Source of the DNA: an uncultured cyanobacterium
GTDB taxonomy: Bacteria; Cyanobacteriota; Cyanobacteriia; Leptolyngbyales; Leptolyngbyaceae
Direction of reading: 5' to 3'
Assembly (NCBI GenBank): GCA_963766075.1
Contig: CAVYAN010000059.1
Location: 1 to 25,854, forward strand
DNA: 25,854 nucleotides
A program made the position numbers and the translations under genes. A model generated the notes under the pieces. That model saw nothing but the letters and a program-made list of their open reading frames with translations, was not told where the DNA came from and did not search any database. Positions 1-12,302 of the stretch are shown here, piece after piece (position 1 is the stretch's first letter; each line of letters opens with the position of its first letter).

Positions 1-306
1 AGCATAATTCTAAATACGGGCTGATTTGCTTGCCTGCAGCCACACCTAAGGCTTGACCTTGTTTCTCGCTCAAGGGGAGGCGACCTAAAATACTTTTTAG
101 GGTGCGGATGTATCCGGCGTTTGTACCTGTAATTGCTGTGATAAAAAAACACCGACTTGGGGACCCACATGTTCCTGAAGTTGCGCGCGAATCCCGGCCT
201 CAATCTGTCCCAGATTTGTCATCTGACTTTTATCTGCGTCGGCATACAAAATCTTGGCAATGGCTTGCACGTGCTCATCGATCTGAGCTTTTTCGGCTGG
301 GGTCAT
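1..306 (-). CDS. ISKra4-family transposase, 5' part, with probable -1 frameshift at a T7 run
   Basis: ORF MTPAEKAQIDEHVQAIAKILY...QEHVGPQVGVF. A -1 shift at GTTTTTTTA (A7 at 143-149 on +) continues ITAITGTNAGYIRTLKSILGRLPLSEKQGQALGVAAGKQISPYLELC, open to the window edge. Resembles cyanobacterial ISKra4 transposases. Confidence 0.75.
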
Positions 307-385
307 GGATATACACTCCCTAAGTCAGGCTCAAACCCTGATTATACAAGACTTATTTTTCTACCCAAAAGGGTGACATGCTCCC
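1..385 (-). mobile_element. ISKra4-like insertion sequence, left end (continues beyond window start)
   Basis: The minus strand begins GGGAGCATGTCACCC at 385, then a transposase N-terminus. The interrupted host reading frame resumes on + just after 385. The other IS end is outside the window. Confidence 0.75.
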
Positions 386-870
386 GATTTCGATTGGCTA
401 AAAGCTTTAAGGCAATGGACTTAGGCGATGCTTATTCTGGTTCAGATACACCACAACTGTATTCAGCAATTACCAGAATTTTTCTTGTTTACTCAGCATT
501 TGAGACGTACTGCCACATTTTCGGAATGAATCCAAGTCGCGAGTCGGAGGTAAAATTGCTTCAAGATTCTCAGTCACAGGATCAAGTAATCAAAACTATT
601 CGTGATTTAGATCCTGAAAATGCTCTATCAAAGTATCTTTCACAACATTTAACTGGCAAGCATCTAAGGCAAATGATGTGTGATTTTCCGGCTAGTAAAG
701 AATTTAATGTCAGTTGCTTTGCGAGAAGCATTCGCCATGTTTTTGCTCATGGTATTTTAGCTGCCAACTCCACGGGGCTATCACCTAAGCGGTTTGATCA
801 GGTATCTCAAATTATTTCTGATTTCTTGTTAAGTTGTATGGATGAAGACTTTGATAAGCGCGTACCATGA
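386..870 (+). pseudogene. 3' part of an IS-interrupted cassette gene, HEPN-like (RxxxxH) protein
   Basis: Frame ...FRLAKSF...FLVYSAFETY...RSIRHVFAHG...DKRVP*. RHVFAH is an Rx4H motif with an upstream helical Glu. The 5' part of ORF 157-870 is IS sequence. Confidence 0.55.
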
Positions 871-871
871 G

Positions 872-962
872 ACCCAACACTTCGTTGGAGCGGAACGGAG
901 ATTTACGCGATCAGTTATAATTGAAAGCGCAAGTCCGTGCGCTCAACGCAAGGCCGTTGGGC
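872..962 (+). other. attC integron cassette recombination site (well formed)
   Basis: R'' ACCCAAC (872-878), 5-nt spacer, L'' GTTG[G]AGC pairing with L' GCTCAAC with one extrahelical base, inner arms ACGGA/TCCGT and TCAGTTA/TAATTGA, R' GTTGGGC (956-962). Starts 1 nt after a stop codon. Confidence 0.8.
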
Positions 963-982
963 TAACGTGAGGTATGTAACAA

Positions 983-1369
983 ATGACGGATAAACTTGAG
1001 CAGAATAAACAAACGGTTACAGCATTTTATGATCTGATGTTCAATCAGTGTAAGCCCGCAGAAGCCATAGAGAAATACGTCGGCGATATGTACATTCAAC
1101 ATAACCCGGCGGTAGCCGATGGTAAGCAGGCTTTCATCGAGTATTTTGAGAAGATGGCGAAAGAATATCCGGGCAAGCGCGTCCATTTTAAGCGTGTCAT
1201 CGCGGAGGGCGATTACGTCGTCTTGCACTGCTATCAGCAATGGCCAGGTGACAGCGATTGGGCTGGCATCGATATCTTTCGCCTTGATGTTAACGGCAAG
1301 ATAGTTGAGCATTGGGACGTACTTCAGACCATCCCAGAAAAATCGGCTAACAGTAATACGATGTTTTGA
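983..1369 (+). CDS. SnoaL-like / NTF2-fold protein (cassette gene)
   Basis: [15 protein letters not shown]...YIQHNP...DIFRLD...[16 protein letters not shown] upstream. Starts 20 nt after the attC R'. Confidence 0.85.
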
Positions 1370-1378
1370 ATAGTAGTA

Positions 1379-1451
1379 GCATCGCCCACCAAAATCATCC
1401 AACTCATGCGCTTTACGGATGGTGGGCATCGCCCACCCTACCAAAATTTTA
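1379..1451. repeat. GTAG-type REP doublet, copy 1 (5'-truncated)
   Basis: GCATCGCCCACC-spacer-GGTGGGCATCGCCCACCCTAC-CAAAATTTT; near-identical to 2338-2419. Confidence 0.8.
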
Positions 1452-1474
1452 GTTACGACCAATCGCTTAATCGG

Positions 1475-1537
1475 TATAATTGAGGTGTTCATTGTAAAGT
1501 GTGAAATCCTAGATTCAACTTTGCGATGGGGTATAAT
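1475..1537 (+). promoter_or_regulatory. Putative promoter of the TA operon (two TATAAT boxes)
   Basis: TATAAT at 1475-1480 and 1532-1537 upstream of ATG 1564. Confidence 0.35.
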
Positions 1538-1563
1538 AGGATAGTTTCTAAGAGGCTACGAGC

Positions 1564-1941
1564 ATGCCTTCAGCGTCAAATACCCAATCAGTTATTATCC
1601 GAACAGAGCGGGGTCTAACGATCGCTGGTACTCGTCTGAGTTTGTACGACATCATGGATCTTCTGAAAGTCCAGTATCCACCAAAGTTGATCCGCGACAA
1701 GTTCAATCTCACGGATGACCAGATTAATGCTGCTTTGTCCTATATAGAGGCAAATCATGCTCAGATTGAAGCTGAATATCAAGAAGTGCTTAGAACCAGA
1801 GAAGAAATTCGTCAGTATTGGGAAGATCGCAACCGTGGGCATTTTTCTAAACTTGCGGAGATGCCACATAAGCCTGGACAAGAATCTCTTTGGGCAAAGC
1901 TAGAGGAGCAGAAAGCTAAACGCGCTTCCGAGGCGGTATGA
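1564..1941 (+). CDS. DUF433 antitoxin (VapB45-like)
   Basis: IIRTERGLTIAGTRLSLYDIMDLL...FNLTDDQINAALSYIEAN; overlaps the next gene (ATGA). Confidence 0.85.
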   Translation: MPSASNTQSVIIRTERGLTIAGTRLSLYDIMDLLKVQYPPKLIRDKFNLTDDQINAALSYIEANHAQIEAEYQEVLRTREEIRQYWEDRNRGHFSKLAEMPHKPGQESLWAKLEEQKAKRASEAV

Positions 1942-2330
1942 CTTTTCTGGTTGATTACAATCTTGATGGTTATGCTTTTGTTTTCCTCGGGATCTTGACA
2001 AAACTTGGCTGGCTTGAGTTTTTGCCTCTTCGGTTTGTTACATTTAGAGAGGCTGGGCTGTCGATGAATAGTAGCGATCGTATTGTCTGGTGCTACGCTC
2101 AAGCAAATCAAATGATGATACTCACAGCAAACCGGAACATGAAGGGTGAGGATTCACTAGAGCAAGTTATGCGCGAAGAAAATACAGCCGCTTCATTTCC
2201 TGTGATTACTATCGGAGATCTTGATCGCTTGGATGAATTTAGCTATCGTGAGCGATGCATTGATCGCCTTCTTGAGATTACGTTGGATATAGAAAGATAT
2301 ATGGGCGTTGGGCGACTCTTTATTCCATAG
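1938..2330 (+). CDS. DUF5615 PIN-like toxin (VapC45-like)
   Basis: N-terminal FLVDYNL, SDRIVW.YAQ..MMILTANR motifs; translationally coupled to the DUF433 gene. Confidence 0.8.
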   Translation: MTFLVDYNLDGYAFVFLGILTKLGWLEFLPLRFVTFREAGLSMNSSDRIVWCYAQANQMMILTANRNMKGEDSLEQVMREENTAASFPVITIGDLDRLDEFSYRERCIDRLLEITLDIERYMGVGRLFIP

Positions 2331-2337
2331 AGGAGGA

Positions 2338-2419
2338 GTAGGGTGGGCGATGCTCACCAAAACCATCCAACTCATGTGCTTTACGGATGGTGGGCGATGC
2401 CCACCCCACCAAAATTTTA
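2338..2419. repeat. GTAG-type REP doublet, copy 2
   Basis: GTAGGGTGGGCGATGCTCACC-spacer-GGTGGGCGATGCCCACCCCAC-CAAAATTTTA. Confidence 0.8.
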
Positions 2420-2523
2420 CTGTAAGTTTGGCGAGCTGGCGTGAACGCAAATGAATATGACCGTTCTACGGCTTGGGGTGAAGTTGTGGCAATTCTTCAA
2501 TATGGCTGGTTTGCGGTGTAGGT

Positions 2524-2646
2524 GAACCCATACGCCTTCAAAGTAACAGAGGGTTTAGTCGCACAGAGATTAACCGCATTCAAAAACTTGTTGAAGAACA
2601 TAAAGAGCAATTGCTAGTAGGCTGAAATGAATTCTTTAACGATTGA
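2524..2646 (+). pseudogene. DUF4160 remnant (5' end lost, internal TGA)
   Basis: EPIRLQSNRGFSRTEINRIQKLVEEHKEQLLVG*NEFFND*. TGA at 2623-2625 sits where the family has Trp (WNEFF). Overlaps the DUF2442 start. Confidence 0.7.
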
Positions 2647-2935
2647 ACTGCTTGAAATGCCCACAATTCAGCAAGTGACAGTCACAGACGACACGCTTTC
2701 CGTGGATTTATCTGATGGGCGCACCCTATCTGTTCCAATAGCATGGTACCCTCGCCTCTTGCAGGTCTCAATTGAAGAACGCAACGATTGTCGCTTCATT
2801 ACGAATGGTAACGGAATTCATTGGAATCAGCTAGACGAAGACATCAGCATCAAGAATCAGATTCTTGGGCAACCATCTGGCGAAAGTCAAAAATCGTTTC
2901 AGCGGTGGTTAAGTAGTCGAGTGGTGACGGTCTAA
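2627..2935 (+). CDS. DUF2442 protein (antitoxin-like partner of DUF4160)
   Basis: VTVTDDTLSVDLSDGRTLSVPIAWYPRL...GIHWNQLDEDISI. Confidence 0.85.
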   Translation: MNSLTIELLEMPTIQQVTVTDDTLSVDLSDGRTLSVPIAWYPRLLQVSIEERNDCRFITNGNGIHWNQLDEDISIKNQILGQPSGESQKSFQRWLSSRVVTV

Positions 2936-2936
2936 C
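2930..2936 (+). other. Isolated attC R'' half site overlapping the DUF2442 stop codon
   Basis: GTCTAAC (RYYYAAC) contains the TAA stop; no matching L/R' boxes follow. Confidence 0.4.
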
Positions 2937-2973
2937 ATATGCCCTGAGCCGAATGAGTTGCCTAAACTTCAGC

Positions 2974-3102
2974 ATGTCAAGATTTTTGTCTAGGGCATTC
3001 CTCGCAGACAAGCTAGTCGAAAGCCTAGAGTTTGACACCGATCCAACCGTTCAGGCAACTTGGGTTACTGAAGCAAAGAAACGACGAGCTTCAGATTCGT
3101 AA
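2974..3102 (+). pseudogene. Addiction-module antitoxin remnant (ParE-associated)
   Basis: SRAFLADKLVESLEFDTDPTVQATWVTEAKKRR; N- and C-termini look deleted. Confidence 0.65.
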
Positions 3103-3678
3103 GCGCAGGCATTCATCAATGCTATTGAGGATGCAGTCTACTGGATTAAAGAATCGCCTACTCGTTATATTGTGATTGACGAGGATGTTCGACGATGGAT
3201 GACACGCAAATTTCCCTATGGAATTCTCAATACAATTGAGTAAGGGACTTCCCCATAAATAATCATGCCATCAGAGCGTTACACCCGCCCCGCAAATGAA
3301 GAATACCGGTGGCGAATTGGAACCAGAAAATGGACGCGCGATTTGAGCGTGATCGGCGATCGCATCCTCCGCGCCGGAATGAAATTCGGCGCTCTCAGGG
3401 CGAAGTCAGTTAGAAACTGACTGGAACGGCTATGATCGCTGACTCCGTCCAGTGGATCGGATGGAACGCAAAGCCCCGGATCTTACAGTCCACTTCTAGT
3501 GGACTTCGCTCTAAGAGCGCCGACTTCTAGTCCGGCGCGGGTCCGAGCGATCGCCGATGAATGTCCAAAGGTATTTTTCTCTTGAATTCGCCACGGGTAT
3601 CCTGAATGGCGGGGTTGGGATGATGATTTATTTGGAAGTCCCTAAGACTATATGATCTTGGCAGTGACGCCCTGTTTA
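3103..3678 (+). pseudogene. RelE/ParE-family toxin remnant split by a MITE
   Basis: AQAFINAIEDAVYWIKESPTRY...VRRWMTRKFPYGILNTIE* (to 3243), continuing DYMILAV after the insertion (3646 onward); start lost. Confidence 0.7.
3244..3642. mobile_element. MITE (399 bp, non-coding) with 26-bp TIR and TAA target duplication
   Basis: Left GGGACTTCCCCATAAATAATCATGCC vs right reverse complement GGGACTTCCAAATAAATCATCATCCC (22/26); TAA at 3241-3243 and 3643-3645. Confidence 0.8.
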
Positions 3679-3717
3679 GGAGTCCTCGGCTCTCGCGTTC
3701 AGCCCGGCGAGAGTGCA

Positions 3718-3781
3718 GGCTAACTATTTACTGCTAGCACCACAGCCCTGACGGGCCGCAGCCTGAACTCAAACCTTAGAC
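3718..3781 (+). other. Degenerate short attC site
   Basis: GGCTAAC at 3718, GCCC-TGAC-GGGC apical hairpin, CTGAACTCAAAC, then CTTAGAC (3775-3781; G>C relative to GTTAGAC). Confidence 0.5.
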
Positions 3782-3836
3782 GGCTCTCGGGCAACATGCG
3801 AAACTGGCGGTAATTCCATTAATTGAGGAATGAATG

Positions 3837-4295
3837 ATGTCAGATGAAAAAGGAACCGTTCGCCTTCACCGGGTGCTGAAAGCACCACCGGAAAGAGTCT
3901 ACAAGGCTTTTCTCGATCCAAGTGCACTAGAGAGGTGGCTACCCCCGTACGGATTCACTGGAAAAATTCACGATATGGATGCACACGTTGGCGGTGGCTA
4001 TCGTATGTCATTCACCAACTTCAGCACGGGAAGCAGTCATTCATTTACCGCCAAGTACACCGAGCTTGTTGCTAGTCAGCGCATTCGACATACCGATAAA
4101 TTTGACGACCCAAACCTACCTGGTGAAATGCGGGTATCCATTGACCTGAAGTCCGTCGTGTGCGGAACTGAACTCACTATCCTTCAGGAGGGAATTCCAT
4201 CAGCTATTCCTGTCGAATTATGCTACTTGGGCTGGCAGGAATCTCTTAACATGTTGGCGCGAGTCGTCGAACCGGATATCCCTGATGGTGCGTAA
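3837..4295 (+). CDS. SRPBCC / AHSA1-like protein (cassette gene)
   Basis: VRLHRVLKAPPERVYKAFLDP..LERWLPP...GGGYRMSF...GWQESL; GAGGA RBS at 3825-3829; alternative ATG at 3834. Confidence 0.88.
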   Translation: MSDEKGTVRLHRVLKAPPERVYKAFLDPSALERWLPPYGFTGKIHDMDAHVGGGYRMSFTNFSTGSSHSFTAKYTELVASQRIRHTDKFDDPNLPGEMRVSIDLKSVVCGTELTILQEGIPSAIPVELCYLGWQESLNMLARVVEPDIPDGA

Positions 4296-4322
4296 TGACC
4301 ATTTGAAACGGTGCGAACCACC

Positions 4323-4408
4323 ACCCAATACGCTGCTACAGCGGACGGTATTAAAATCTTGGTAGTGATGTAAAAGTGCTCTGCCGCCGCTAACCCAGAA
4401 CGTGACTA
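4323..4408 (+). other. Degenerate terminal attC site
   Basis: ACCCAAT (R''-like), CAGCGG[A]CGGTA pairing with TGCCGCCGCT with an extrahelical A, ending CAGAACGTGA (R' mutated); abuts the ATPase stop. Confidence 0.6.
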
Positions 4409-7153
4409 GCGGCGTATGAACCACTTCTCGGTTTCGATCGCCCAAAAGACAACAGTGCTCAACCCAATACTAATGGTGAGATCGATCGCCGATAGGGAGA
4501 CAGTGTGAAAAACGACTTGCAACACCGGAATATAAATTACGGCCATTTGCAAGCCCACCGTCAGCAGCATAGCGGCCAATAGCGGTCGATTGGAAAATAG
4601 CCCCAACCGAAAGAGAGAATCCCGCTGCGAACGCATGGCAGCAGCCAAGCTGACCCGCGATAAGGTCAGGGTCGTGAACACCATGGTTTGCCAATTGGCC
4701 GCTCCTGCAAACCAATAGTGATTCGCAATAGCGAGCAAAATCAGCCCCAACAATAGCCCCACCCAAATAATCTCGCGACCCACCCCCCGACTAAAAATGC
4801 TGTCACTCGGGCGATGCGGCGGACGGCGCATAATGTTGCGCTCGGCAGGTTCCACACTCAAGGCCAAGGCCAGTAGACCATCCGCCAACAGATTAACCCA
4901 AAGAATTTGCAGCGGAATCAGGGGCAGCGGCATCCCTAAAAACGGAGCCAGCAGAATCACCCAAAGTTCACCCGCATTCCCCGTTAAGGTGTACTTGATG
5001 AACTTCCGAATATTGTCATAGATGACGCGTCCCGCCTGAACCGCCGTCACAATGCTGGCGAAGTTATCATCCAGCAGCACCATGTCGGCGGCTTCCTTCG
5101 TGACATCGGTCCCCGTAATGCCCATAGAAATGCCAATATCGGCTTGCCTCAGGGCGGGTGCATCATTCACGCCATCCCCCGTCATGGCAACAATGTGACC
5201 GCAGTCCTGAAAGGCTTTCACAATATCTAATTTGTTCTGGGGTGAAACCCTGGCATAGATTGAAAAAGTTGCCACTTGAGTTTTCAGGTCTTCTTTAGAT
5301 AATTGCGATATGGCCTGTCCTGTGAGGATGCGATCGTCGGGAACGATCCCCAACGCGCGGGCGATCGCCTGTGCCGTCAGGGGGTGATCCCCCGTGATCA
5401 TGACGGGTTGAATCCCCGCTTCTTGACATTTCAGCACGGCCTGTTTTGCTTCAGGTCGCACCGGATCAATCATCCCAATCATCCCGATAAAAATCAGATC
5501 CTGTTCCAGCGGCTCTCGGTCCCAATCCACGGTGGGGGCCGTAAACGTGTGAAAGGCAATTCCTAAAACGCGCAGGCCGTTCCGGGCTAATCGGTCGTTA
5601 TCTGCCAGAATTTCTTGACGCCGCTGCGCATCCAGGGGTTGGGGTTGCCCCTTCACCAAAATTCGATCGCTCACCGTCAATAAGCTGCCCACGCTCCCTT
5701 TGGTGAAGGCAATATAATTCACCTGGCCCAGTCCCAACAGTTCAGCTTTGATCAGCGCCAAGGCGACGGGAAACGGATCGGTGGCGGAGGGAAGGTGATG
5801 CACCGTTGTCATTCGCTTGCGGACGGCATCAAAGGGTTGCTCCGCAATGCGGGGCAAGGATTGCTCTAGCGTGGTCTTCGCCAAGCCCAACTGTGCCGCT
5901 GTCATCACTAAGGCCCCCTCCGTTGGATCGCCCACCGCATGCAACGGGTGAGGACTATCCGGATGGGGTTCTAGCAAGGCGTCATTGCACAGCGCCGCCC
6001 CGCACAGCAGCCAAGCTAAGGCGGGCTGGGCTGCCAGCAAACCCGACAAATCGTCATCCGTATGCAGTTCCGCAGTACGCAGTTCCGCCAAACGCGAGGT
6101 CAAATCAATTTGATAGCCCTCGACTGCCAAAAATGTCGCCGTCATCTGATTTTCCGTGAGCGTCCCGGTTTTATCCGAGCAAATGACGGTGACGGAGCCG
6201 AGGGTTTCCACGGCGGGGAGCTTGCGAATCAAGGCGTGCTGTTTCAGCATGCGCTGTGCTCCCAGCGCCAAAGCAATGGTGACAACGGCGGGCAAGCCTT
6301 CGGGGATGGCGGCAACAGCGAGACTGACTGCGGTCAGGAACATCAGCGATAATTCTTCACCCCGCCAGAGGCCCAACCCAAAGATCACGGCCACCAGCAG
6401 CAGCGTAATCAAGGCTAGCTTCGTGCCGAGCTGGTCAAGCCGATGTTGGAGTGGCGTTGGCTTAGGTTTTACGGTTTGGATGGCGGTGGCAATGCGGCCT
6501 AACTCTGTAGCAGCCCCGGTGGCGGTAACAACACCGAGTCCACGACCATAGGTAATCACAGTGCCCATATAGGCCATATTGCAGCGATCGCCGATGGGCA
6601 GATCCGCCGATGCCAACCGTTGAGTATTTTTGTCCGATGGCTCCGATTCTCCCGTGAGCGAGGCTTCCTGAATGCGAAGATTGGCACTTTCGAGCAACCG
6701 ATAGTCCGCTGCTACCCGGTTTCCCGTTTCAAGGAGAATGATATCGCCCGGAACTAACAGATGGGATGAGATCTCCTCCACGCGCTGTGCCCGACGCACT
6801 TTAACCGTGGACACGGCGAGTTTTTTGAGGGCGGCGATCGCTTGCCTTGCCTGATACTCTTGGCGAACACCTAAAATGGCATTAAATGCCACGATGACCA
6901 AAATTGCTACCGCATTGGTGTAGTCGCGTAATGCCGTGGAAATCAACGCCGCTACAATTAACACCACAACCATCGTCGCCGTCAATTGCGTCCAAAGAAT
7001 TTGCCAGAGGGTCTCTCCGGGAGGCTCCGTCAATTCGTTATGGCCGTATTGCGTCAATCGGCGAGTCACTTCCGCAGGGTCTAACCCATCAGTGGCCGAT
7101 GTGTTGAGTTGCTGCAATACGGCGGTGGAGTCCAACATATACCAAGGACTCAT
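4406..7153 (-). CDS. Cation-translocating P-type ATPase (type II, Ca2+/PacL-like)
   Basis: [23 protein letters not shown] and [12 protein letters not shown] motifs; ATG 7153 preceded by AAGGAG. Confidence 0.93.
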
Positions 7154-7253
7154 ATTCCACTCCTTCAATAGAGACTATCAGCCCGCCTAATCCAAGAGTG
7201 TTCATGCCCTCTGTCGTCATCACCATGCCCGCATTACTTTCATACAGGTCTCA

Positions 7254-8169
7254 GAGGATGTCTGAGAAGTTAACAGCTACGCTAGCCGTCTGAGCATGAG
7301 TCGAATCATGGCAACATAGATGAAGGTTTCGGAGGTTTCCGGCAAAACTTCGTAGTCTTTCGATAAGCGGCGTGACCAATTGAGCCATCCCCAAGTGCGT
7401 TCGACTACCCACCGTTTCGGCAATAAGACGAAGCCCTTGGCCGCCTCTGAACGTTTAATGGTTTCGAGAATCCAGCGGTAGGTATCCATCGTCCACCGCA
7501 TAAAATCCACGCCTTCATAGGTTCCATCAACCCAAATGCGCACCAACCGCGTTATCCGCTCCGGCACCGCCGCAAGGCGATTAAAGAGGAGACGCGCCCC
7601 CGCTTGGTCACTGACATTGGCCGCCGTGACCACAACCATCATGACCAACCCCAAGGTGTCCACCATGAGGTGACGTTTGCGTCCTTTCGTTTTTTTGCCG
7701 CCATCAAAACCGATGGTGATCGCCGTGGGAAGGCCGGTTTTTACCGATTGGGAATCCATACTGGCAGCACTCGGCACGGCCTCATGCCCTTGAATCGTCC
7801 GCTCCCACTCGACACATTGGGTATGAATCTTCTCCCAGGTACCCTCTAAGCGCCATGCCCTGAAGTAGTGATAGACCGTTTGCCACTTGGGAAAGTCGTG
7901 TGGCAACATGCGCCATGCACCACCCGCAACAACTATATAAAAGATGGCATTGATAACGGCTCTGAGATCGACACTGCGGGGGCGTCCACCCGCTTTAGCA
8001 GCAGGGAGCAACGGTAACAAAAGTTCCCATTGTGCATCACTCATGTCAGTCGGATAGGATAGGTTCATGGCTCTCATTCTTCTGTCAAGGTTTCTTTCTT
8101 CTGACAGTTTACGGAATGAGGGCTTCTTTTTCCCTTCCTACGCTATGTCTGGGCTTTTCAGACATCCTC
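7254..8169 (-). mobile_element. IS5-family (IS1031-like) insertion sequence, 916 bp
   Basis: TIRs GAGGATGTCTGAGAAG / GAGGATGTCTGAAAAG (15/16); TCA target duplication at 7251-7253 and 8170-8172. Confidence 0.92.
7277..8077 (-). CDS. IS5-family transposase
   Basis: YPTDMSDAQW...GGRPR...DSQSVKT...GRKRHLMVDT...RWVVERTWGWL..SRRLSKDYE. Confidence 0.93.
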   Translation of the reverse strand: MRAMNLSYPTDMSDAQWELLLPLLPAAKAGGRPRSVDLRAVINAIFYIVVAGGAWRMLPHDFPKWQTVYHYFRAWRLEGTWEKIHTQCVEWERTIQGHEAVPSAASMDSQSVKTGLPTAITIGFDGGKKTKGRKRHLMVDTLGLVMMVVVTAANVSDQAGARLLFNRLAAVPERITRLVRIWVDGTYEGVDFMRWTMDTYRWILETIKRSEAAKGFVLLPKRWVVERTWGWLNWSRRLSKDYEVLPETSETFIYVAMIRLMLRRLA

Positions 8170-8185
8170 TCAACTAGGGTTGCTA

Positions 8186-8308
8186 TAAGTAGAAAGGTGC
8201 AATTATTTATAAAACCGGACTTCAACTCCGCTCTCAACGCCTGGACTCGCGGGGTGAGCGGAGCCGAACCCCAAACTAATCGTTAGTTTCATTCCGCCCA
8301 CCCACTTA
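8186..8308. repeat. Degenerate MITE-like element containing a REP-like hairpin
   Basis: Ends TAAGT.../...ACTTA with weak TIRs; inner TTCAACTCCGCTC...GAGCGGAGCCGAA inverted repeat. Confidence 0.4.
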
Positions 8309-8309
8309 G

Positions 8310-8609
8310 CTAGTCAAAGAGTCCTTCTACTTTTTGCCGAAACACAATCAAAGCATGGGTAGACTGTAACGGCTTTAAATATTCTAGTAATTGATCAGAA
8401 ATTTCGGAGGTCACAATCGTTTTGACTTCAATGTTGGTGTTATAGCCGGCAATGTCTCCCATTCGTCTCCCATGACTGCCTGCGCCTTGAGTTGGAACTA
8501 TTGAATATCCGGATACATTTAGCTTAATTAACAATTGGATTAAACGATCTTGCAAAACGGCTTCACTAATAATTGTGACAAGAGTACCCGTAACTAAAGA
8601 CAAGGACAT
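8310..8609 (-). CDS. PII-like signalling protein (SbtB-like)
   Basis: LVTIISEAVLQDRL...VSGYSI...GAGSHGRR...NIEVKTIV; 99 aa; GGAG RBS. Confidence 0.75.
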   Translation of the reverse strand: MSLSLVTGTLVTIISEAVLQDRLIQLLIKLNVSGYSIVPTQGAGSHGRRMGDIAGYNTNIEVKTIVTSEISDQLLEYLKPLQSTHALIVFRQKVEGLFD

Positions 8610-9106
8610 AAAAACTCCAAGAACGATTTCATAGCAGAATGAATCAAGGTTTTTACCGCAGTGATACCCAGCTAATCACCGGATAGGTAAAACACTATAA
8701 TGCTGATATAAATACATCATAACGGAACTACAACCGCTCGGTATTAGTAAAGTCTATTTTTAATTTTCTAATCCTTCTAAGACATAACGATTGATTTTAT
8801 AGCGTTTTTCCGGTATGTTTTGGTCCAGTCGAGAGCTGCTGGAACACCGATTCTATGAGCGATCGCGTCTTGACTTTTACCTCCAGGCTTCTTTGTCATG
8901 GCCTCATGTCATGGCCTCAATTTATTCATTGTAGAAACTTGAGTTTGTGATGGCCTAATTTCTGTTTTGGGTGAATTTACGGCCCGAATATTTGTGACTC
9001 CCAACAGAGAAATGATGCCGACTGAAAGCATCATAGCCAGACTTGCAGTCATCAAAAATCCAGAAATCTGTTGACGTGAAATCATGTTTTTAACTCTGTG
9101 AAATAA

Positions 9107-9406
9107 TCAATTTAAACGGGCCTCTAGTGTAAATTCAGTGTCCATGCGCAGAATTTCTTCGTAGCAAAAATACAATGAAACGGTCCTTACTCCCAAAATC
9201 AGCCAAGCATAATTGCACAAATCTTCCAAGTCGTCTACTAACTCATCGACAATTTCTGGATCAGGACAATAGACATTCAGCGTATTGGTTACATCGAGCC
9301 GAATCAAGCAGCGTGGCAAACTAGAACCAAAAAAATGTAGCAGCCGCTTGATGCGACATTCTTCCAGTCTGATGAGATCTTCAGCGGTGATTTGAGTTAG
9401 TAACAT
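9107..9406 (-). CDS. Hypothetical protein (cyanobacterial-type)
   Basis: 99-aa ATG ORF with protein-like composition (VYCPDPEIVDEL...AWLILGV..VSLYF). Confidence 0.65.
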   Translation of the reverse strand: MLLTQITAEDLIRLEECRIKRLLHFFGSSLPRCLIRLDVTNTLNVYCPDPEIVDELVDDLEDLCNYAWLILGVRTVSLYFCYEEILRMDTEFTLEARLN

Positions 9407-9503
9407 CGATTAAATGCCTGATCACAGTGAGCAGGCGCTAGGGTGATTGATGACCGTGGATCGCACTTTACAGGTTGGCGGTCTACGAGTGCCCGATGCA
9501 TTT

Positions 9504-9519
9504 TGTATAAAGAATTACA
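9504..9519. promoter_or_regulatory. NtcA-type binding site
   Basis: TGTA-TAAAGAAT-TACA matches TGTA-N8-TACA; about 100 bp upstream of the 9406 start. Confidence 0.45.
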
Positions 9520-10332
9520 GATATTGTCATTAGCCATGTATTGAGGAGAAGTCCCTAAAAGGGTAAGGATGCTGATAGTGTTATCCTATTCCTGTGCTCA
9601 GGGTTCGCCTGCTGGGGTGTCTACGGCTAATTGAACGGCTCCATCCCAGCGTCAGCGGTAGTTTTAGAGCGGTGGCTTTAGATAGATTGTATAAACTCAT
9701 GATGTCCTCCTCAAAGGATGTGAGAATACCTACTTCCAGAATAATTTTCGGGAGAAAATAACATTTCTAAGTCTTTGTTCGACTTTGACAGATGATTGTT
9801 TTACTTCTCGAATAAGTTGATTGAATACGATACAAAATTTAACTAAAATAAAACGGAATTTCGGTCTGTGGAATTTTGAAATCGAACGTTCTGTATATTC
9901 ATGAGAGTAGGGTATTTTAGATTCCCGGAACTCTATCCTTTGGCATATATAGCCTTGATCAGACCGCTGAATATAGGGAGCCAACCCATCCGTACCGAAT
10001 TTGGGTAAAGGGTCTACGGGCTCCGGTTCGACTCAGTCTGGCGGCTCGATCGCATAGCTGTGCTGCCACTAGCCCTAAAGCCGGTCCGGGTTTTACCCCG
10101 CCGGGGGCAGTCTGCTTCCCAATTCTGGCAGTGCCAGCCATGCTATTAGCAAATCTCAGAATTTCTGCCTAGAATTTCTGCCTCTTTAGTCGCGCAACGA
10201 ATCTTATTTTTTATTTCCAGTAACTGTAACGGATAGGGTGTATAGATTTGAACGATTGATGGTCTATTGTGGCAATACAGTCATTTTTTGAATCAACTAT
10301 GATGGAATGACAAAGCCTATACGAGGTCACCT

Positions 10333-10644
10333 ATGAACACCATTAAGACCCAGGGCACCCCCCCCGATCTCAATGAAAAACATCAGAGCGACGGTACCGA
10401 GCTGATTCCGGCTGAAGTTCAAGCCACCATGCGCCACAACGAGGTTCCTGAACCGATTGATGATCCTGCTGCTGCTAGCTATACCGTGAATGATGAAGGA
10501 CTCATTGATAATTACGCCATTGAACCCGATGTCTATCCAGCCGCCTATCCTTCTCCACGACAGCAGCGAAACTATGCCGTGATGGCAGCCGGAGCAGCAC
10601 TATTTGTGGTTACTCTAGTCCTGATTTCATTTGCTGTTAGCTAG
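10333..10644 (+). CDS. psb34: Psb34 (Ssl1498-family) photosystem II assembly-like protein with N-terminal extension
   Basis: YTVNDEGLIDNYAIEPDVYPAAYPSPRQQRNY plus a C-terminal TM helix ending FAVS; GAGG RBS. Confidence 0.75.
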   Translation: MNTIKTQGTPPDLNEKHQSDGTELIPAEVQATMRHNEVPEPIDDPAAASYTVNDEGLIDNYAIEPDVYPAAYPSPRQQRNYAVMAAGAALFVVTLVLISFAVS

Positions 10645-11095
10645 TACACAAAGGCCGAAGTCAGAAGACAAAAATCAACAGACAAAGAACGGATGATGGA
10701 AATCTTAGGCGATGGAAATCTTTGTGGAGAAGATAATTTGATTGTTAATGGCGGGATATTTGCTTCCATGGCGCTGTACTAGGGATTTTTGATTCATGCG
10801 ATCGCACAACGTTGTATCCCTGAATTTGGCGCAACGAAGCACACATCATTTGCGATCGCAGCAATCTAGTGCTTGAAGATAGCAGTAAAAGGTAGGGAGT
10901 TAAAATGTCCAGATTATCTGAATATTAGTCATCCATTTTTGACTATTTTTGATCTTTCAAGTTTTCACGAATAAGGCTGTACCTGATGCTCAGAAGCAGC
11001 CACACTCGCCTATTTTTCTGAATCAGTTTGTTGTTTCTGATTGATTTTAACAACCTAAATTCCTATTTTTATCTACAAAAGAGAGGATAATAACG

Positions 11096-11335
11096 ATGCC
11101 TCCATGCTACAACCCATCTCTTAGCGAAGAACCTCGAAGCCATGCAATGAAAGTTGTTCCGCCGATTGCGCGCGAAACTCTTCTCAATTGGCTAGAAAGC
11201 AGTGGCAGATTGAGATCTCAAGAACTTGATGAATTTCAGGATCATAAAGTTCCTGAGGATTTAGATGATTTTCTTGATGTAGAAAATCAAATTCCAGACG
11301 ATGAAGAAGACTCTGAAGATTCAGAGGAAGATTAA
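11096..11335 (+). CDS. DUF3134 protein
   Basis: YNPSLSEEPR...LLNWLESSGRL plus an acidic tail. Confidence 0.75.
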   Translation: MPPCYNPSLSEEPRSHAMKVVPPIARETLLNWLESSGRLRSQELDEFQDHKVPEDLDDFLDVENQIPDDEEDSEDSEED

Positions 11336-11461
11336 ATTTTTGTGGCGCGGTTTTGACCGTAAAGAGACTCTGAGTAGTCTTGGACGGGGTAGATATTGAT
11401 CGTCTGTCGATTTTCTGCCCCTTGACCAGATCTTGAATTAACCATTAACTGGAGAACCACC

Positions 11462-11593
11462 ATGTCAAAAGAAAAAAAGGGAAATAAAGAATCCAAAAAA
11501 CCGAAAGCTGCCTCTAATGGCACTAAGAAACAAAGGAAAGCCCTAAAAGGAAATGATGGAAATATATCAGGACTTCTAGGCAATTCAAATTAG
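11462..11593 (+). CDS. Small Lys-rich protein (43 aa), absent from the ORF track
   Basis: GGAGA RBS, then MSKEKKGNKESKKPKAASNGTKKQRKALKGNDGNISGLLGNSN*; terminator downstream. Confidence 0.6.
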   Translation: MSKEKKGNKESKKPKAASNGTKKQRKALKGNDGNISGLLGNSN

Positions 11594-11677
11594 GTTTTGC
11601 TTAATCTTGATTCTCTAATTTCCGTTTGATTTTATTGTTTGATCCTGAATCGCGATCGCTAAATCGCTTTAGAATCC

Positions 11678-11709
11678 CACTGCTCATCTCCTCTGAGCAG
11701 TGTTTTTTT
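11678..11709 (+). terminator. Rho-independent terminator
   Basis: CACTGCTCA-TCTCCTC-TGAGCAGTG followed by T7. Confidence 0.8.
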
Positions 11710-11913
11710 ATCAATCAAATGACCCTAGAAATGAAACGGTGCTTTGTCATAGTGTAAAAGTGACTTGTCAAATAAAATTTAAATCTGATAAATCATAATA
11801 ATTTAGATCTTTCGACTTTCGGTGTTAATTCAAAAGTCGAATATTGCGGGTGACCTTTGATCTCATGCTTATGCCCCTAAAATTTAAGGAGAACATATTA
11901 AGGAGAACATACA

Positions 11914-12099
11914 ATGCTACCCGGACTTAACGCCCAAGATTTTGAATTAACACTGGAACAACAGTTTGCGATGACCCGCTACAGCCATCTCGTGCATGAA
12001 GTTTCTGCTGAGGAGTTACGCATCACTCTGTTAGAGATTGCCCGTCAACTCATGGTGAAGGACAATCTCATTAAATCGCTCATAAAGGTGGGAATGTAA
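11914..12099 (+). CDS. nblA: Phycobilisome degradation protein NblA
   Basis: ELTLEQQF...VSAEELRITLLEIARQLMVKDNLIKSL; 61 aa. Confidence 0.85.
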   Translation: MLPGLNAQDFELTLEQQFAMTRYSHLVHEVSAEELRITLLEIARQLMVKDNLIKSLIKVGM

Positions 12100-12302
12100 T
12101 GCGCTATCGCACCGATAGCATTGACTGCCAGCAGTGAGAGATGCCTACGCTAACGAGTGAACTTCTGGTTATGCTATTTCTCCAGCAGTGAGTGAAACTA
12201 TTTATCTTGGCGAAAGCGATCTAAAGATCGCAGCGCCCGCATCAATCCTGAGACTGGGACAGCAATCCCGGACTGTGACATCTAGGCGCGCCTAGGAGAA
12301 CG

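Follow-up and report, generated by a model that had tools for sequence, protein, structure and literature searches.

A decayed integron cassette array beside a P-type ATPase gene in a Leptolyngbyaceae cyanobacterium

Positions 386 to 4,408 of a contig from an uncultured Leptolyngbyaceae cyanobacterium are best read as a row of seven or more integron cassettes, now decayed. The contig (C59; 25,854 nucleotides), analyzed over its entire length and referred to here as the window, belongs to an assembly (G000) of 5.05 Mb in 126 contigs, with a completeness of 84.9% and a contamination of 1.7%. The row, cut on its left by an insertion sequence (IS), likely represents the distal and now frozen part of an array, one of several that are headed by attI sites and would probably be served in trans by a single integron integrase (IntI) encoded elsewhere in the chromosome. 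This reading as a whole is given a probability of about 0.68. Taken alone, the stretch is an ordinary array in decay, and cyanobacterial arrays of this kind are already on record; the enzyme presumed to serve the attI platforms in trans would be the IntI of contig C41. An earlier note, drawn from the letters of the window, had taken the stretch for the old end of a cassette array, and this proposal is supported by covariance-model matches, by relatives of the cassettes that end in attC sites, and by the lack of a conserved gene order. The cyanobacterial assignment of the host is sound, because the octamer HIP1 (highly iterated palindrome 1) occurs in the genome at 1.37 per kb and those homologues of the first gene that have a named source come from cyanobacteria.

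Comparisons covered 40 other cyanobacterial genomes, none of the same genus (41 with G000). A geometric scan of 20 integrase neighbourhoods from other genomes yielded 57 candidate attC sites, and a covariance model was built from the bottom strands of 28 distinct cassette-strand attC, all from other cyanobacterial genomes. In the training alignment, 96% of cells pair and two-sided changes occur at 13 of 18 pairs, values biased high because candidates were picked for pairing. An unfiltered search of the window returned exactly two significant matches, both on the bottom strand, and the next best reached 12.7 bits. No match at E 0.001 was found in five non-cyanobacterial control genomes (150 candidates scored in each). 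A profile hidden Markov model of the same training sites scored 33.8 at 4323-4407 and 14.0 at 872-962, compared with 7.6 for the best of 200 shuffles of 386-4408. An Rfam search gave a single match at chance level, and a promoter and terminator scan of 300-4500 gave counts no higher than chance.

The site at 872-962 (+ strand) retains intact R and L boxes: R'' ACCCAAC (872-878), L'' GTTGGAGC (884-891, with the extra G), L' GCTCAAC (941-947), and R' GTTGGGC (956-962), with a crossover predicted between G956 and T957. The four boxes and the extrahelical base of an attC are all present, as the earlier note had described, and so is the bottom-strand hairpin. Two of the checks proposed in that note came out positive here: the bottom strand folds at -20.9 kcal/mol (z -3.4, equalled by none of 200 shuffles), and the covariance model built for this analysis matches at 34.3 bits (E 5.5e-7). 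The site is a 91-nt variant whose L'-R' spacer measures 8 nt rather than 5-6 nt; a heuristic scan restricted to spacers of 5-6 nt did not pick it up. In one public contig, 881-958 is matched without a gap and with nine changes, and other letters come after GTT; the 8-nt spacer is thus likely a natural variant. DNA copies of 872-962 sought in 400 other genomes amounted to three short partial matches and nothing closer. Public contigs begin (957) or diverge (958) precisely at the predicted crossover, one of them matching 957-1374 at 96% identity from that point on. Four sets of public contigs from other organisms contained no junction showing an excised cassette circle. In a search for source reads, no sequencing run contained as many as half of the sequence words, and no RNA data set was listed among those containing them.

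The second match is a terminal attC of the cyanobacterial 85-89 nt type (4323-4408, + strand), whose R' position overlaps the stop codon of the neighbouring ATPase gene. Its 36.0 bits (4323-4407; E 1.9e-7) are the best score in the window, with both R boxes broken (ACCCAAT, GTGACTA) and the fold absent (z +0.3). The two matches lie 3.4 kb apart on the same strand, so that the stretch falls under the definition of clustered attC sites without an integron-integrase (CALIN), namely at least two attC on one strand within 4 kb, the second here having broken R boxes. Remnants of two more sites are also visible. The R'' box that had been noticed over a stop codon at 2930 is GTCTAAC (2930-2936) at the end of a DUF2442 gene, and in genome G031 a complete attC begins at the same place behind the same gene. 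At 2930-2948 (+ strand), a deletion joins this R'' to the leader of the next cassette, and the same leader precedes the antitoxin gene of genome G034. A broken, short attC-like site at 3718-3781 (+ strand) ends a mostly deleted cassette. It has no covariance-model match and no fold (z -0.6), and its assignment rests on layout (a stop inside GGCTAAC, and CTT instead of GTT as R'); one public contig matches 3737-3784. Fetched loci contained no profile match to it, and independent short sites were too few for a model of their own. Of the two sites previously called degenerate, the terminal one is therefore well supported and the short one weakly so. Decay along the array is patchy and does not, as had been supposed, rise toward the right: the right-most site scores highest, and attC are entirely lost behind the SnoaL and DUF5615 genes.

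The layout of the genes agrees with these sites. Every Pfam-supported gene and remnant between 386 and 4295 is short and on the + strand, which upholds for this set what had been stated of the open reading frames (ORFs) at large. The co-oriented genes end at R'', and cassette bounds fall at G/TT. Parts of 386-4408 are matched in 21 of the 40 other genomes, and no match covers more than one cassette unit. The cargo is variable among the compared genomes, and the conserved gene order that the earlier note named as evidence against an array is absent from all 40. Homologous cassettes elsewhere do carry attC: DUF2442 in G031, the antitoxin/ParE pair in G034 and G017, a SnoaL orthologue within a five-attC array of Burkholderiales (L076), and a DUF5615 paralogue on C41 with a full attC behind it. 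HIP1 is missing from 2,883 bases of cargo, where 3.96 would be expected (P 0.019), and occurs three times in the 2,763 bases of the ATPase gene, about the genome rate. Its absence from the cargo had been rightly observed, its supposed abundance in the ATPase gene had not, and two HIP1 octamers lie within the span in a transposable element described below.

These results bear on the notion that the region is a mere hot spot for toxin-antitoxin genes, repeats, and IS, with hairpins that arose by chance or act as terminators. Mobile and repetitive elements are indeed present (an IS, one miniature inverted-repeat transposable element, and two repeats resembling repetitive extragenic palindromes), and most close SnoaL and SRPBCC relatives lie outside cassettes. 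However, two model matches with E near 1e-7 stand on the correct strand directly past stop codons, the shuffle and genome controls are clean, and other organisms confirm the cassette boundaries. The hot-spot notion is already largely refuted by this evidence and retains very little probability.

The integrase, attI platforms, and shared cassettes

The genome search for an integron integrase that had been suggested for this contig found one intact intI in the assembly, on C41, 1 kb from the contig end. An attI site and a first cassette lie divergently to it, and the contig end truncates the attC of this cassette. The encoded protein scores 464.6 bits against TIGR02249 (cut-off 265). Residues R138, K163, H269, R272, H295, and Y304 were located, which we take to be catalytic, together with an LPYALARKYP stretch that presumably belongs to the IntI-specific insertion.

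Eight attI-like sites of three types occur in G000, seven of which head arrays without an intact intI. The type-1 sites (C41, C17, C31, C65) can be aligned as far as AGTT and differ from there on, so that the crossover is placed at this point. Type 2 is found on C10 and C37, without intI, and type 3 on C31, beside a decayed integrase of a second type, and on C11. The cyanobacterial attI region (L001:2598-2735) consists of three or four tandem palindromes, each about 40 bp long, and similar repeats are found in relatives. Three type-1 platforms (C17:164563-165726, C31:99451-101047, and C65:49191-48805) share the same intI deletion, which begins at the start codon, leaves the last 38 codons, and has an identical junction. 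The junction creates an inverted repeat of 15 bp and an ORF of 47 codons that includes the catalytic His and Tyr region; this ORF is unlikely to encode a working protein, because its C65 copy has four residue changes. Among 13 loci of relatives with partial intI, one (L170) combines a 3' stub, an attI-like match, and attC, but does not have this deletion. A further intI 3' stub in G000 (C8:67600-67928) is fused to the 3' end of another gene, presumably comM/YifB-like.

Scoring 150 of 1,356 candidates in G000 gave at least 29 attC matches, which fall into 23 clusters. Nine clusters are headed by a repeated small gene, at ten (including the window) the contig ends some 5 kb or less upstream, and three, located far from contig ends, show no small-gene head and no attI match. 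The small gene, of 74 codons and no known family, has 21 copies in G000, and at nine of them an attC lies no more than 8 kb away, on the side and strand expected (random mean 0.28, maximum 3 in 5,000 draws). The copy at L001:816-1040 (- strand), like the 20 others, has 20-nt tandem repeats upstream and weak cyanobacterial matches in the Atlas. A general partnership of this gene with integrons was rejected, as weak matches near intI were found in only three other genomes and on the opposite strand. Homology fades at GTT, with a fuzzy edge, in 5 of 10 copies of one small-gene subfamily, and no such edge was found in the other two subfamilies. Segments of attC arrays are also duplicated at 98-99% identity (C118:3501-5536 with C21:15493-13433, and C37:8496-9422 with C82:27383-26454).

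Cassettes are shared between platforms. A gene-less cassette of about 135 bp comes first after the crossover at C65, C37, and C11 (C65:48806, C37:2701, C11:1727), and thus behind three attI types, none of them beside an intact intI. Its copies differ by 1-3 bases and carry the motif TG-n-TAAAAT. Left of the crossover, C41, with intact intI, and C17, with a stub, differ at 36 of 200 bases; to its right they differ at 5 of 776, the first cassettes being 99.4% identical. Across the stub platforms, the attI region differs by 14-18% and the cassettes by less than 3%. The closed genome G017 offers a parallel with four array heads, two with intact IntI of different types and two with truncated copies. 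One family of gene-less 308-bp cassettes comes first in all four (L033, L047, L178, L179), and this cassette is present in many tandem copies. The G017 heads show a shared cassette pool; they do not prove that one enzyme acts on several attI types, because cognate integrases are present.

The same data could be explained if the window were an array tail and the platforms were independent dead integrons, each once equipped with its own integrase and sharing first cassettes through duplication or gene conversion. The decayed second integrase on C31 accords with this, and pseudo-intI formed by intragenomic duplication have been reported (Nemergut et al. 2008, PMC2426708, in the part available). 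In addition, platforms with the same stub have exchanged small-gene subfamilies, an indication of homologous recombination. Against such an origin, the identity of the platforms to one another rises abruptly at the crossover itself, the stubs have diverged far more in the attI region than in their cassettes, and the shared gene-less cassette is bounded by G/TT behind three unlike attI types. Independent dead integrons are thus considered quite unlikely.

Beyond G000, every one of the 41 cyanobacterial genomes has attC matches (from 1 to 99, among only 108 candidates scored in each), and intI scored above the cut-off in 21 of them; four genomes with attC matches had no TIGR02249 match at E 1e-8. 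A broader model may tentatively be put forward, at somewhat less than even odds: a cyanobacterial distributed integron, in which one integrase serves non-autonomous platforms throughout the chromosome. These would consist of a small gene of no known family, an intI stub or no intI, and an attI of one of several types, would share one cassette pool including a putative promoter cassette, and might spread by integrase-type recombination at GTT. In this model, attC would be near-universal in the class and arrays such as that in the window would be storage tails. If arrays lacking an integrase do continue to exchange cassettes, tools that ignore attI would misclassify live platforms as CALINs or as single attC sites lacking integron-integrase (SALINs), and integrons would weigh more in cyanobacterial genome change than surveys suggest.

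Formation of the array and points against the proposed history

In the favoured history, the steps would be as follows. In line with established integron biology, IntI would have inserted each cassette at attI, the folded bottom strand of its attC being recombined at G/TT, and new insertions would have pushed older cassettes toward the ATPase gene. Deletions, palindromic repeats, a transposable element, and point changes would then have destroyed every attC other than 872-962. Excision by attC x attC recombination at this site would no longer be possible, because no second intact attC lies to its right. The intact DUF433/DUF5615 pair would help to retain the block. The platforms themselves may have been copied around the chromosome, most of them losing intI, and the remaining integrase may still supply cassettes. 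The head of the array, which the earlier note placed left of the window, is out of view, because the contig starts inside a multi-copy IS; neither intI nor attI is present on C59 itself.

The right-hand junction might also accord with a different beginning, in which a cassette inserted at a secondary chromosomal site (attG) at the ATPase stop codon and seeded a stand-alone CALIN without an attI of its own, which grew by attC x attC recombination and later received the IS. Such insertion has been shown in E. coli (Loot et al., 10.1101/2022.09.11.507474, as far as its accessible text goes). The last attC abuts the ATPase stop without a spacer, and the letters of its R' are the ATPase's own. Broken R' boxes close other clusters as well (CGATCGC in one case), and the three clusters far from contig ends lack both a small-gene head and an attI match. 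However, the junction reads GTG, whereas the consensus in the accessible text of the same source is GWT. The R'' box of 4323-4407 is mutated as well, so that plain decay explains the junction. Furthermore, at least seven stacked cassettes better fit an attI-fed array, and a platform is present at most clusters with a visible head. An attG-seeded CALIN is therefore judged unlikely.

Several observations weigh against the attI-fed, trans-served history itself. No contig-end overlap connects C59 to any attI, including the end of the C41 array, and the first 40 codons of the truncated first gene (386-870) are absent from the assembly. Contig C11 was rejected as the other side of the IS insertion, because its array meets the same IS end and has a different flank. 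A target duplication sought as a link between C59 and an attI head yielded nothing. The assembly is incomplete and breaks at arrays, so that further intI may be missing from it. Given the decayed second integrase type on C31, and the two intact types of G017, each with its own attI type, cognate integrases may have filled the sites of types 2 and 3. At the level of the cassettes, the 8-nt spacer has no counterpart among the 57 attC candidates from relatives' arrays. The cargo often lies outside cassettes, with attC-model matches in 3 of 80 SnoaL loci and one weak match in 80 SRPBCC loci, although this cyanobacterium-trained model has a lower sensitivity outside the group. None of seven DUF433/DUF5615 loci has an attC directly behind the genes, and no attC was found at DUF2442 in G026, at ParE in G028 and G033, or at the HEPN-like gene in G207.

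Cassette cargo and neighbouring elements

Three kinds of element had escaped the earlier note: the IS end (1-385), two 68-nt repeats (1384-1451 and 2352-2419), and the transposable element at 3244-3642. The IS right end (1-385, - strand) belongs to an element of 1,157 bp with the terminal repeat GGGAGCATGTCA and cuts off the array. Full copies at 99-100% identity lie on C100, C13, C11, and C31; it is presumably ISKra4-like, and its segment 97-306 has no Pfam match. Three of the five copies lie inside cassette arrays, and this IS and a related one occur within attC sites or at their left ends (C31:32621, C8:62711).

The first gene (386-870, + strand) keeps the last 161 of about 201 codons, the IS having removed its 5' end, and likely encodes a HEPN fold. 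It has 79 homologues, mostly of about 201 residues, and the motif R-x-x-F-A-H-G is invariant in 59 sequences, HEPN domains being characterized by R-x4-6-H on an all-helical fold. HEPN structures top the VIA list for its model in weak matches with Z up to 7.2; the match to a HEPN toxin (Z 7.2, root-mean-square deviation 3.7, 115 aligned residues) is under the tool's threshold. Pfam gave no match, and Foldseek none at E 0.001.

The SnoaL cassette (957-1369, + strand; ORF 983-1369, Pfam) has lost its own attC, and its best relatives, of up to 84% identity, belong to many non-cyanobacterial groups. The first of two repeats resembling doublets of repetitive extragenic palindromes (REP), with its left end cut (1378-1451), occupies the position of this attC. 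The second (2338-2419), composed of GTAG-tagged palindromes, stands in the place of the DUF5615 attC. The two are 90% identical over 68 nt (1384-1451 versus 2352-2419), are the only copies in G000, and have none in the 40 other genomes at E 1e-5. Both begin 8-9 nt past a stop codon, where an attC is expected. Between them, the DUF433 and DUF5615 ORFs (1564-2330, + strand; Pfam), both intact and presumably a toxin-antitoxin-type pair, may have arrived as a repeat-flanked block.

The 3' remnant of another cargo gene and a spacer follow (2421-2523, + strand) and recur in the stub-headed array of C65 (81% identity over about 100 nt). Next come a DUF4160 remnant, with its 5' part deleted and a premature stop, and the DUF2442 ORF (2627-2935), together spanning 2523-2935 (+ strand; Pfam, aligned to the G031 cassette). 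The addiction-module pair at 2989-3667 (+ strand) consists of an antitoxin (PF09720) and a presumed ParE-like toxin, named from recall and likeness to relatives. It is disrupted by a roughly 150-bp internal deletion, a 3' deletion, and a MITE (miniature inverted-repeat transposable element; 3244-3642). The MITE has terminal repeats GGGACTTCC, TAA on each side, nested inverted repeats, and the two HIP1 octamers already mentioned. Copies of this element of about 400 bp, at 85-95% identity, lie on C22, C10, C79, and C13, and contig matches break at 3243 and 3645. Terminal inverted repeats, target duplication, absence of a gene, and several copies identify it as a MITE, and no named family was matched. 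The last cassette carries an intact SRPBCC/AHSA1 ORF (3834-4295, + strand; Pfam).

The chromosomal boundary of the array is a P-type cation ATPase gene (4406-7168, - strand; Pfam), with the junction formed by GTG at its stop codon. The nearest ATPase homologue is 76% identical, and none of 14 homologous loci has an attC-model match within 1.5-kb flanks. Directly upstream of the gene, at 7250-8170, lies an intact IS5-family element with several copies of 95-98% identity in the genome. The AT-rich segment at 8200-12300 (GC 0.38-0.46) contains a P-II-like gene and several small genes without a Pfam family, and no attC match.

Comparison with known systems

Integrons in cyanobacteria, CALINs beside IS, and genomes with several intI have been published (PMC4889954, PMC8352920, PMC2426708, PMC9176274). 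In the available portion of the survey by Cury et al. (2016, PMC4889954), Cyanobacteria are among the integron carriers, half of the CALINs come from genomes that encode an IntI, and 38% lie next to an IS. Exchange between CALINs and integrons appears there as speculation, and in the accessible text of a Xanthomonas survey (10.1101/2025.06.18.660453) as a passing statement. G000 provides a natural test of the speculated point, namely whether cassette exchange continues in arrays that have no integrase of their own. A literature search, mostly of open-access texts, returned nothing relevant on orphan attI, trans-acting truncated intI, or a dedicated cyanobacterial integron study.

The window resembles the CALINs, or split sedentary chromosomal integrons, of the survey by Cury et al.: at least two attC stand on the same strand, no intI lies within 4 kb, an IS adjoins, and the genome encodes an IntI. 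This CALIN status is valid only for the present assembly, in which the contig end hides the head. In contrast to the classes of that survey, which ignore attI as far as its available text describes them, G000 has seven attI-like sites, none beside an intact intI, at the heads of arrays. The sites of the 85-89 nt family are akin to the cyanobacterial chromosomal attC for which Ghaly et al. (2021, PMC8352920, in the part available) have a taxon-specific model; the 872-962 site differs from this family in its length and spacer, a contrast drawn without direct comparison with that model.

The many single attC scattered over the chromosome recall the attG insertions and SALINs described in the accessible text of Loot et al. 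(10.1101/2022.09.11.507474). Unlike random attG insertion, however, 9 of the 23 clusters in G000 stand behind a repeated platform element. Deleted or duplicated intI and frozen arrays are features shared with the pseudo-integrons and multi-intI genomes of Nemergut et al. (2008, PMC2426708) and of the Xanthomonas survey (10.1101/2025.06.18.660453). In contrast to what the accessible parts of these sources report, three loci here share one precise deletion, keep a full attI, and have apparently gained cassettes since. Gene-less promoter cassettes are known from Blanco et al. (10.1101/2023.11.21.568050, available text); the short gene-less cassette with TG-n-TAAAAT, first in three arrays of G000, would be a putative counterpart. 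Finally, units bounded by attI, or attI-type cassettes, are movable by IntI1 according to the accessible text of PMC12901181, and movement of a whole platform as such a cassette may be taken as a lead only.

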